Shown here in pieces: positions 34,969 through 35,632 of a stretch of DNA of 38,040 bases. Source of the stretch: Escherichia phage Louie. The DNA is taken from sequence record PQ850616.1. One strand, 5' to 3'. The notes below the pieces were generated by a model. It was not told the origin of the DNA. It made no database searches and worked only from the letters and a program-made list of their open reading frames with translations. Position 1 is the stretch's first letter. Every line of letters begins with the position of its first letter. The position numbers were made by a program, and so were the translations under genes.

Positions 34969-35379
34969 TTAAGGGAGGGTTTTCATTACGCTATCAATCT
35001 CCCTTCCTTCAAATCTTGAAGTCCAGCCGCAGGAGCCGCAATGGTAAGGAAAGTCATCGAACCCGCTACCGACCTGTTTAAGACAGTTGGGGCAATAAAC
35101 CGCGCTGATATACCCACCCGCGGGATTTTTTCTAAAGGCCGCCCCCATGTGCTCGACAAACTCATCCTTTGCCCGATAAGCCGCTATTTCCTTCTCAAGT
35201 TCTACGTTCTTGGCTTTCGCCTCGGCAAGTTCTGCTATGGTGGCAGCATGGGCTTTTTGAAGTACGTCGATCTGCTCTCCAATGAAAGCGATGCGCTCGC
35301 GCAGGACCTCGTTACTTTGCACAGCAGAAAGCGCGCCGATCCCGTTTTTAAGGGACGCGATAAGTAATCCTACATCCAT
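34969..35379 (-). CDS. Reverse-strand hypothetical protein (136 aa): N-terminal coiled coil, C-terminal CxxC…CxxC zinc ribbon
   Basis: ATG (second Met of MTMDVG) with AGGGA RBS 6 nt upstream; CPNC…CGSC motif; embedded between pR'/tR' and holin; no homolog recalled. Confidence 0.6.
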   Translation of the reverse strand: MDVGLLIASLKNGIGALSAVQSNEVLRERIAFIGEQIDVLQKAHAATIAELAEAKAKNVELEKEIAAYRAKDEFVEHMGAAFRKNPAGGYISAVYCPNCLKQVGSGFDDFPYHCGSCGWTSRFEGREIDSVMKTLP

Positions 35380-35632
35380 GGTCATTCCCTAATTGTCTGT
35401 GGAATGACCAATTTAGCAATTTCCTTTGTCTGTGGAAAGCAGGGAAACCACGCGCCGGGCGTGGATAAATATCCCGGTATTGAATCGACTGTTGGCTGCC
35501 GCTTGGCGGCCTTTTTCATTTCAGGCTCACGGGAATCATCCGCTACGTGCTTTGTTGATAAATCCAGCCCGTGAAGCCTGACCCTTTTCAAACACACACA
35601 CAGCGCCATCCGAAAAATCGGAGGTGAGGCCT

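Follow-up and report, generated by a model that had tools for sequence, protein, structure and literature searches.

Ring interacting pore 1 (Rip1), described only in 2026, joins sensor and effector in one protein and turns the ring-shaped assembly proteins of an invading phage into a lethal pore (PMC13434031). It is a single-protein defense that is harmless alone (review PMC13434031, summarizing Patel et al. 2026, Nature 651:1060); its C-terminal half docks on the 11-mer small-terminase ring of the infecting phage, or on the portal, 12 copies of Rip1 assemble into a second ring, their N-terminal helices making up a membrane pore, and the cell membrane is disrupted prior to phage maturation (PMC13434031). 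Rip1 is known from coliphage HK446 and from a Pseudomonas aeruginosa prophage (PMC13434031). Here a reverse-strand gene of Escherichia phage Louie (sequence record PQ850616.1) was compared with this system. Judged from profile searches, protein architecture and upstream DNA, it is probably a divergent member of the Rip1 family, that is, a single-protein prophage defense carried on a self-contained moron cassette between the terminator tR' and the holin gene. The whole stretch of DNA analyzed, 38,040 nt in length, is called the window, and all positions are counted from its first letter.

Two other described loci resemble parts of this arrangement. In phage phi80 the defense gene taiEcA lies on the reverse strand within the Q operon, and expression of Q lowered the amount of its protein (PMC11364771). 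The small RNA IsrK of Gifsy-1 pairs with a repeated complementary sequence within its own locus (PMC4825925).

The gene and its probable kinship with Rip1

A first-pass annotation of the window, made from its letters alone, had called a 136-amino-acid (aa) reverse-strand open reading frame (ORF) with CPNC and CGSC motifs and an AGGGA ribosome-binding site, and all of these were found where it had placed them. The gene was delimited from the ORF list, the start used in its family and conservation, as follows.

34969..35379, reverse strand: Rip1-like gene, 136 aa plus stop codon

The first in-frame ATG lies at 35385 and would give a 138-aa product (34969..35385, reverse strand); the start used by homologues is the third codon (ATG at 35379, protein MDVGL...), for a length of 136 aa, and the ATG at 35385 is probably not the true start. 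The four Cys residues of the two motifs (CxxC...CxxC) are invariant in a 23-sequence alignment reaching down to 28% identity, and the VLRER motif with which the long helix begins is conserved to the same depth, as is the FVEHxGAxFKR beta-hairpin. The annotation had given no homologue; hundreds exist, all of them unnamed in the sources searched. Close homologues (n = 66, 58-96% identity) occur across Enterobacterales and Vibrio, and a family profile search of 1.84 billion representatives recovered 418 members at E < 1e-3 (counted as cluster representatives, 50% clustering), nearly all of them 125-145 aa long and of a single architecture. This 125-145-aa branch is spread over Enterobacterales, Vibrio, Pasteurellaceae and beta-proteobacteria. 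Two distant family members, P0116 (227 aa) and P0194 (213 aa), are extended at the C-terminus by a further domain of ~80 aa, which matches MarR/IclR winged-helix models weakly and below threshold.

The median pairwise ratio of nonsynonymous to synonymous substitution rates (dN/dS) was 0.22, and comparison with a Klebsiella/Salmonella-type homologue gave dN/dS 0.06 at dS ~1. By these sequence comparisons the minus-strand ORF is a genuine gene under purifying selection. It is very improbable that the functional element lies instead on the plus strand, as a 108-aa ORF at 35041-35367 or as an RNA made from the late transcript. A codon-aligned antisense frame of 106-136 aa is indeed free of stops in every homologue checked, TTA, CTA and TCA codons are fewer than the usage of neighboring genes would predict (95 observed vs 230 expected), and a weak isrK-like Rfam match lies on that strand. 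Synonymous sites of the minus-strand gene are, however, saturated (dS ~1, with dN/dS 0.06-0.3), and there is therefore no second coding constraint; an overlapping plus-strand gene at 35041-35367 was ruled out on this ground. The minus-strand protein also has invariant Cys ligands and a confident fold, and no Rfam family reaches its gathering score. Antisense frames of this kind are commonly open in genes that avoid rare Leu and Ser codons, the codon expectation is inflated where the G+C content of a gene differs from that of its neighbors, and the TTA/CTA/TCA depletion is probably compositional.

In the predicted protein a hydrophobic N-terminal helix rich in small residues is followed by a long coiled-coil helix, then by a beta-hairpin and a C4 zinc ribbon, and a last helix forms the C-terminus. 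In the full-length AlphaFold model (predicted local distance difference test score, pLDDT, 89) these appear as a short N-terminal helix, one continuous 49-residue helix, a beta/zinc-ribbon domain and a C-terminal helix; the C-terminal domain modeled alone reached pLDDT 93. Searches of the protein against Pfam, NCBIfam, PADLOC and PDB sequences returned only coiled-coil noise or generic zinc-ribbon matches, with 0 families at E up to 1 in PADLOC-DB v2 (2023), a library that predates Rip1. A regulator with a DksA/TraR-type C4 zinc finger was considered and rejected, there being no Pfam match (PF01258) and the model having one continuous 49-residue helix, not a helical hairpin. Foldseek searches of PDB and BFVD with the full-length model, dominated by the long helix, gave nothing informative, and literature on phage HK225 and on phrog_1244 yielded nothing about the gene.

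Profile and structure searches, both of which the annotation had proposed, led to Rip1 by way of PHROG 1244, hhalign and a Foldseek comparison of the C-terminal domain. The match of the window protein to phrog_1244 (E 5.8e-26) covers positions 2-155 of the 157 in the profile. HK446 gp37 (164 aa), which is identical to the "ring interacting pore 1 (Rip1)" of PDB entry 9oox, matches the same profile at E 2.2e-53 over positions 2-151. Alignment of the window family with the Rip1 family by hhalign gave a probability of 66-68% (E ~5e-5, 88-119 columns), colinear from the N-terminal helix to the zinc ribbon, and reciprocal hidden Markov model scores between the two families were positive both ways, up to 14 bits. 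When the model of the C-terminal domain was searched with Foldseek, the Rip1 chains of 9oox ("phage HK446 Rip1 in complex with T6 small terminase") ranked 1 and 3 of 350,542 PDB chains (template modeling score 0.54, probability 0.66, E 0.67); taken by itself this model-based match would be only a lead. The two clades share a G/A/S-rich motif in the N-terminal helix (GALSAV vs GALMSAV). Finally, the DNA upstream of HK446 rip1 aligns element by element with the region upstream of the window gene, and the same holds for Rip1-clade genes of Serratia, Providencia and Pantoea, three besides that of HK446.

The control region upstream of the gene

The perfect 12-bp direct repeat, its 33-bp spacing and the palindrome at 35448-35464 had been noticed in the first-pass annotation and were located as described. 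A 10-bp inverted repeat at the start codon had gone unmentioned there, as had two elements at the edges of the slot given further below, a plus-strand terminator at 35494-35511 and a hairpin at 34938-34967. The elements of the control region are as follows.

35379-35388 / 35401-35410, reverse strand: perfect 10-bp inverted repeat, TGGTCATTCC / GGAATGACCA (0/5000 shuffles)
35393..35404, reverse strand: repeat copy 2 (gene strand TTCCACAGACAA), at ~+1 to +12 of the predicted transcript and 2 nt upstream of the ribosome-binding site
35410..35415, reverse strand: predicted -10 TAAATT, preceded by TGC (extended -10), assigned by conservation
35426..35437, reverse strand: repeat copy 1 (gene strand TTCCACAGACAA), within the loop between the TTTCC and GGAAA arms of a short hairpin
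35448..35464, no strand assigned: hairpin S2, palindrome CCACGC-GCCGG-GCGTGG
35455..35479, no strand assigned: hairpin S1, CCGGG / CCCGG

The direct repeat, TTGTCTGTGGAA at 35393-35404 and 35426-35437, is exact, its copies lie 33 bp apart and the 38-kb window has no third exact copy; none of 5000 shuffles of the 70-nt upstream region (0/5000) gave a repeat of such length at a spacing of 25-45 bp. Copy 1 overlaps a weak -35, TTTCCA (35438..35433), and the 3' arm of the hairpin that holds it resembles a ribosome-binding site. The position of copy 2 is conserved in relatives. The 10-bp inverted repeat spans from just past the -10 to the A of the start codon and holds the AGGGA ribosome-binding site and copy 2 in or beside its 3' arm. 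Relatives have an equivalent inverted repeat of 7-11 bp, built from at least five unrelated arm sequences and always running from the -10 to the start codon. The TAnnnT positions of the -10 are invariant across cassette lineages (TAAATT, TATATT, TATAAT, TATGAT, TAAAAT, TAAACT, TAGTAT); a scan with the sigma-70 consensus did not call the cassette promoter, the -10 being assigned by conservation alone.

Both upstream hairpins are preserved by compensatory change. Versions of S2 in cassettes of the window type ("X") and in Rip1 cassettes include AACCAC/GTGGTT, CCTC/GAGG, TCACG/CGTGA and ACCTCA/TGAGGT, with an A-T to G-C replacement in cassette L110, and S1 is found in relatives as GCCTG/CAGGC, GCCGGG/CCCGGC and GCCTGA/TCAGGC. 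Complementarity of the S1 and S2 arms was judged sequence by sequence. S1 and S2 are probably alternative folds because they overlap. Variants that would pair as G.U on one strand and A.C on the other favored the plus strand 4 to 1, which is not significant. In both protein clades the gene-strand order over ~110-130 bp is S1, S2, repeat 1, -10 and repeat 2 within the inverted repeat. The repeats, the upstream hairpins and the start-codon hairpin are a conserved control region that moves with Rip1-type genes.

The twin repeats are present in relatives at a conserved position, and their sequence varies by lineage, both copies changing together in at least seven lineages. Types present in two copies each are ACAGACAA, ACAGTCAA, CCAACATAA, CCCCAACGT and (T)ACCCCTACAG; two further types are CCGCA(A/G)CGTAA and CCCCA(A/G)CGTAA, with A or G at one position. 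Repeats of the form CC[CG]CAACGTAA occur with the 136-aa clade (L006, L061, L071) and with a 163-aa protein of the Rip1 clade (L118), and proteins 87% identical to that of the window are preceded by wholly different upstream DNA, or follow mnt immediately and have no repeats.

These data bear on a different reading of the gene, under which its product would be a nucleic-acid-binding regulator, for instance one that represses its own gene or controls antirepressor or immunity genes, and its likeness to Rip1 would reflect merely a shared scaffold. As a coiled-coil dimer, such a protein would set its zinc ribbons on both repeats, which would serve as DNA operators on either side of the -10 or as loops of RNA hairpins. 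Two identical direct sites about three helical turns apart that straddle the -10 would suit it, as would the basic, highly conserved FKRK beta-hairpin beside the zinc ribbon, the weak winged-helix (MarR/IclR) matches in the C-terminal extension of two family members, and the antirepressor genes (Ant/Rha/Bro-N) adjacent to the gene in 5/9 curated contexts. It is nevertheless improbable. The repeat type does not track the protein, CC[CG]CAACGTAA being found in both clades, and proteins at 87% identity stand behind unrelated upstream DNA or behind mnt; both facts argue against the protein as the sequence-specific partner of the repeats. Moreover, no match to a DNA- or RNA-binding family was obtained in Pfam, NCBIfam or PDB, and HK446 Rip1, of the same PHROG, has a documented non-regulatory mechanism (PMC13434031). 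Sites for host transcription factors within the repeats (LexA, CRP, IHF and PhoB, compared by eye only) were likewise rejected, the repeat differing completely between cassettes in related hosts. Of the suggestion in the first-pass annotation that the repeats serve in regulation, what stands is that they are conserved, co-varying parts of the cassette; nothing was found that shows them to be protein operators.

The conserved predicted -10 should place the transcript start within copy 2 or immediately ahead of it. Most of the 5' arm of the start-codon hairpin would then go untranscribed, and a simple RNA hairpin that sequesters the ribosome-binding site is not reconcilable with this layout. A conserved promoter upstream of repeat 1, which would place both repeat hairpins in one RNA, was not found in the shared block. 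In some distant cassettes (L069, L085), a strong gene-strand intrinsic terminator lies 35-70 nt upstream of the start codon, between a good promoter and the ribosome-binding site; in one example it reads ACCGTGAAG-TTGCAG-CTTCACGGT and is followed by a T run. This arrangement suggests an attenuator-type leader in those lineages.

Ranked by these observations, the control region is most likely a dosage-limiting cis module that holds a dangerous pore-former at a low level; a divergent small RNA comes second, and protein operators are the least supported. The second of these is tentative and doubtful. The twin repeats of Rip1-type cassettes would be, not protein operators, but the two halves of an RNA-RNA control device, in which the A/T-rich -10 region would act as a promoter both leftward and rightward. 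Repeat copy 2, beside the ribosome-binding site, would form the 5' end of the leftward mRNA. A short RNA transcribed to the right would start with the copy 1 complement, pass S2 and S1 and end, in the window, at the terminator 35494-35511. Since the repeats are direct, the two divergent, non-overlapping transcripts would carry 12 complementary bases, and the small RNA could titrate translation of the pore-former. Such a device would explain the joint change of the copies in at least seven lineages and the independence of repeat type from protein clade, together with older single-copy differences that are G.U-compatible (L006, L068, L077, L118), the 4/5 S1/S2 variants that are G.U on the plus strand (not significant), and a terminator guarding the holin gene.

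Slot, mobility and proposed action of the cassette

The window is from a P22-like lambdoid phage and nearly complete. Its large ORFs follow the expected order terminase, portal, coat, tailspike and integrase (roles assigned by size and order only), and a cI-type repressor is encoded at 26820-27521 (Pfam-confirmed). Around the cassette, the following features were located.

34170-34793: lambda-type Q gene
34836-34864, plus strand: late promoter pR', part of the backbone and outside the cassette; annotated as pR'/qut in HK97-like relatives
34896-34923, plus strand: terminator tR', part of the backbone and outside the cassette
34938-34967, no strand assigned: GC-rich hairpin marking the left edge of the slot, immediately past the 3' end of the ORF
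35494-35511, plus strand (late-operon strand): intrinsic terminator before the holin leader, at the right edge of the slot
35633: start of the holin gene

The hairpin at 34938-34967 is a probable 3' end or stabilizer of the ORF transcript. The terminator at 35494-35511 is retained in E. coli-type cassettes, with compensatory changes in its stem. Alignment with relatives that have both flanks placed the variable slot at ~34942-35512. In E. coli KL53 it holds 255 bp of unrelated non-coding filler with its own terminator at the end (L002 1594-1847), and in W619 and WEM25 a plus-strand ORF of 189 aa, without a Pfam match, plus a small reverse ORF (L003 1653-2355; L004 1645-2344). The content of the slot thus does differ among close relatives, as the first-pass annotation had proposed to check, and the pR'-to-holin slot is a cargo hotspot. 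The window cassette itself recurs at 96-99.5% identity in phage HK225 and in ~10/5426 complete E. coli genomes, with different Q genes upstream.

Outside this slot the gene was found in many others. It inserts into at least 10 different prophage slots, the toxin slot of Shiga toxin (Stx) phages included. Curated gene calls and PHROG annotation of neighbors placed it between Q and holin (the window and HK225), within operons for tail and baseplate, in the spanin/small-terminase, N/cI, cII/O and cro/rha intervals, and in immI-like regions. By the same gene calls it lies on the strand opposite to the genes of the flanking phage operon, or on its own strand directly behind an mnt- or Arc-type repressor gene. 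All inspected contexts (at least 20) are prophages or integrated elements, without a conserved partner gene, and the gene occurs in only 5/50,697 isolated-phage records; it is therefore mainly a prophage gene. Relatives with both flanks carry filler or other cargo in its place, hairpins or terminators stand at both ends, a promoter is predicted, and the upstream module accompanies the gene into other slots. With an upstream region of its own, many unrelated prophage slots and an orientation against the flanking lytic genes, the gene looks like the regulated, independently transcribed moron that the annotation had suggested.

The setting in some P22-like phages points to expression in lysogens. 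In several such contigs the gene begins 3 nt after an mnt or Arc-type gene (L060; also L056, L057, L009 and L010). The product of one such upstream gene is 79% identical to P22 Mnt, and the same locus has an Ant gene and a sar RNA at the Rfam gathering score (L060 3433-3499). At the corresponding position P22 itself has orf59a and then sieA, both on the lysogenic strand, and in these immI regions the Rip1-like gene takes the place of P22 orf59a, fused into the mnt operon. The P22 promoter Pmnt is active in lysogens. In these phages the gene would be co-transcribed with the lysogenic maintenance repressor gene mnt, a context that supports lysogenic expression. Together with membership in the PHROG of Rip1, it favors the earlier suggestion of a lysogen-expressed defense or exclusion function. 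Antirepressor-type genes (Ant, Rha, Bro-N) adjoin the gene in 5/9 curated contexts (L006, L007, L009, L087 and L088; raw count), an adjacency that could reflect shared hotspots rather than a functional link.

In the proposed mechanism, a lysogen would transcribe the gene leftward from its own predicted promoter (-10 at 35415..35410), giving a small cytoplasmic protein that would be harmless alone. Once another phage had entered and was building its small-terminase or portal ring, the beta/zinc-ribbon domains at the C-terminus would dock around that ring, the N-terminal helices would thereby be gathered into a membrane pore, and the cell would be killed or lysed before the invader matures. That the Rip1 pore mechanism carries over to the window protein is held with moderate confidence, on the strength of family membership. 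The cassette faces pR', and Q-modified late transcription past tR' runs head-on over both gene and promoter. This Q-antiterminated transcription could lower cassette expression as the resident's own terminase or portal rings accumulate, and so spare the resident phage; we only infer such self-sparing, from the anatomy of the locus and the phi80 Tai precedent.

Several observations weigh against this interpretation. The window protein is 28 aa shorter than HK446 Rip1 (136 vs 164 aa) and its zinc-ribbon insert has diverged; direct pairwise similarity between the two is undetectable, neither phmmer nor BLAST-level searches linking them, hhalign reaches a probability of only ~68%, and Foldseek an E-value of 0.67. 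Although hydrophobic and G/A/S-rich, the N-terminal helix has a low helical hydrophobic moment, 0.15-0.21 against 0.3-0.4 in Rip1. The sensor domain has diverged, which may mean a trigger other than small terminase or portal. As for self-sparing, the TaiEcA protein of phi80 persisted after induction (PMC11364771), and antisense silencing may be insufficient for self-immunity.

A rival reading is a lysogen-expressed moron with some other cytoplasmic role, which would, for example, block another step of superinfection or modulate host physiology and would share with Rip1 a PHROG by distant ancestry only. The context favors an accessory gene expressed in lysogens under any mechanism, the linker and the sensor domain are unlike those of HK446 Rip1, and the N-terminal helix is less amphipathic. 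We consider such a role rather unlikely, since the clades share the PHROG, a colinear architecture that includes the N-terminal G/A/S-rich motif, and the control region, and an alternative family or fold was not detected. Membership in the Rip1 family remains the preferred reading.

Two further ORFs nearby may be mentioned. The ORF at 36932-37402 (plus strand), directly after the spanin gene, has a Tad2-like (Thoeris anti-defense 2) domain (Pfam PF11195, E 9e-27) and is a candidate anti-defense gene in the late region, a few hundred bases from the Rip1-like gene. The 169-aa ORF at 32852-33361 (plus strand), which lies upstream of Q in the nin region, is a homing-endonuclease-like insert with HNH_3 and NUMOD4 domains.

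Comparison with known systems

The protein is moderately novel; what may be new is the control region, shared and co-varying. Alongside Rip1, PHROG 1244 takes in a large branch of 125-145-aa proteins, and the control region common to both makes it testable by what means a pore-former is kept silent but available in a prophage, and how the prophage escapes harm in its own lytic growth. The diverged sensor domain is a natural comparison for asking which phage rings are recognized.

The IsrK locus of Gifsy-1 (RF01394) occupies the same kind of slot, between Q and the lysis genes of a lambdoid prophage. A match to the isrK family of Rfam at 35439-35516 (plus strand) scored 21 bits (E 0.037; gathering score 50 bits) and covers S1, as helix 2, and the terminator; a match to isrJ at 34857-34924 (plus strand) scored 17 bits (E 2.5), far below its gathering score. 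The window differs in that helix 1 of IsrK is unmatched and the orf45-anrP genes are absent. A real IsrK small RNA was rejected at 21 vs 50 bits, nothing in the window or in 17 loci reaching the IsrK gathering score.

With the immI genes of P22 (orf59a, sieA) the gene shares a position, as its homologue in P22-like phages stands 3 nt behind mnt, and also a strand opposite to the late genes. SieA of P22 is a superinfection-exclusion membrane protein with its own promoter. There is no homology between these genes and the window gene, and the window phage is without an immI region, its gene lying in the pR'-to-S slot.

The layout is paralleled in Tai (tail assembly inhibition; phi80 orf63/taiEcA; He et al. 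2024, PMC11364771), likewise a reverse-strand defense gene that interrupts a Q-controlled lambdoid late operon. TaiEcA is expressed in lysogens and reduced when Q drives late transcription, an arrangement termed a "noncontiguous operon" (PMC11364771), and it too is a moron found in several prophage hotspots. TaiEcA differs in being 204 aa long, in having no zinc ribbon and in blocking tail assembly; it also has a counter-defense gene, atiEcA, in the late operon, whereas no such partner is visible in the window slot. Homology to Tai, whether TaiEcA or the Tai proteins of Pectobacterium PICIs, was rejected (hhalign probability 0.2%; no match to phi80 in tblastn with the window protein).

Rip1 differs from the window protein in its longer helical part and in the longer insert inside its zinc ribbon. 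The repeat is TTCCACAGACAA in the window and TACCCCTACAG in HK446, and the slots differ as well, pR'-to-holin in the former and N-proximal in the latter. The two share PHROG 1244 and the order small-residue-rich N-terminal helix, coiled coil, beta-hairpin and C4 zinc ribbon. Each is a lone small prophage gene set against the lytic direction; HK446 rip1 is a reverse-strand insert convergent with N, and the Providencia homologue of the window gene (L008) is likewise convergent with N. Both are preceded by a homologous upstream control region with twin repeats 33-34 bp apart.

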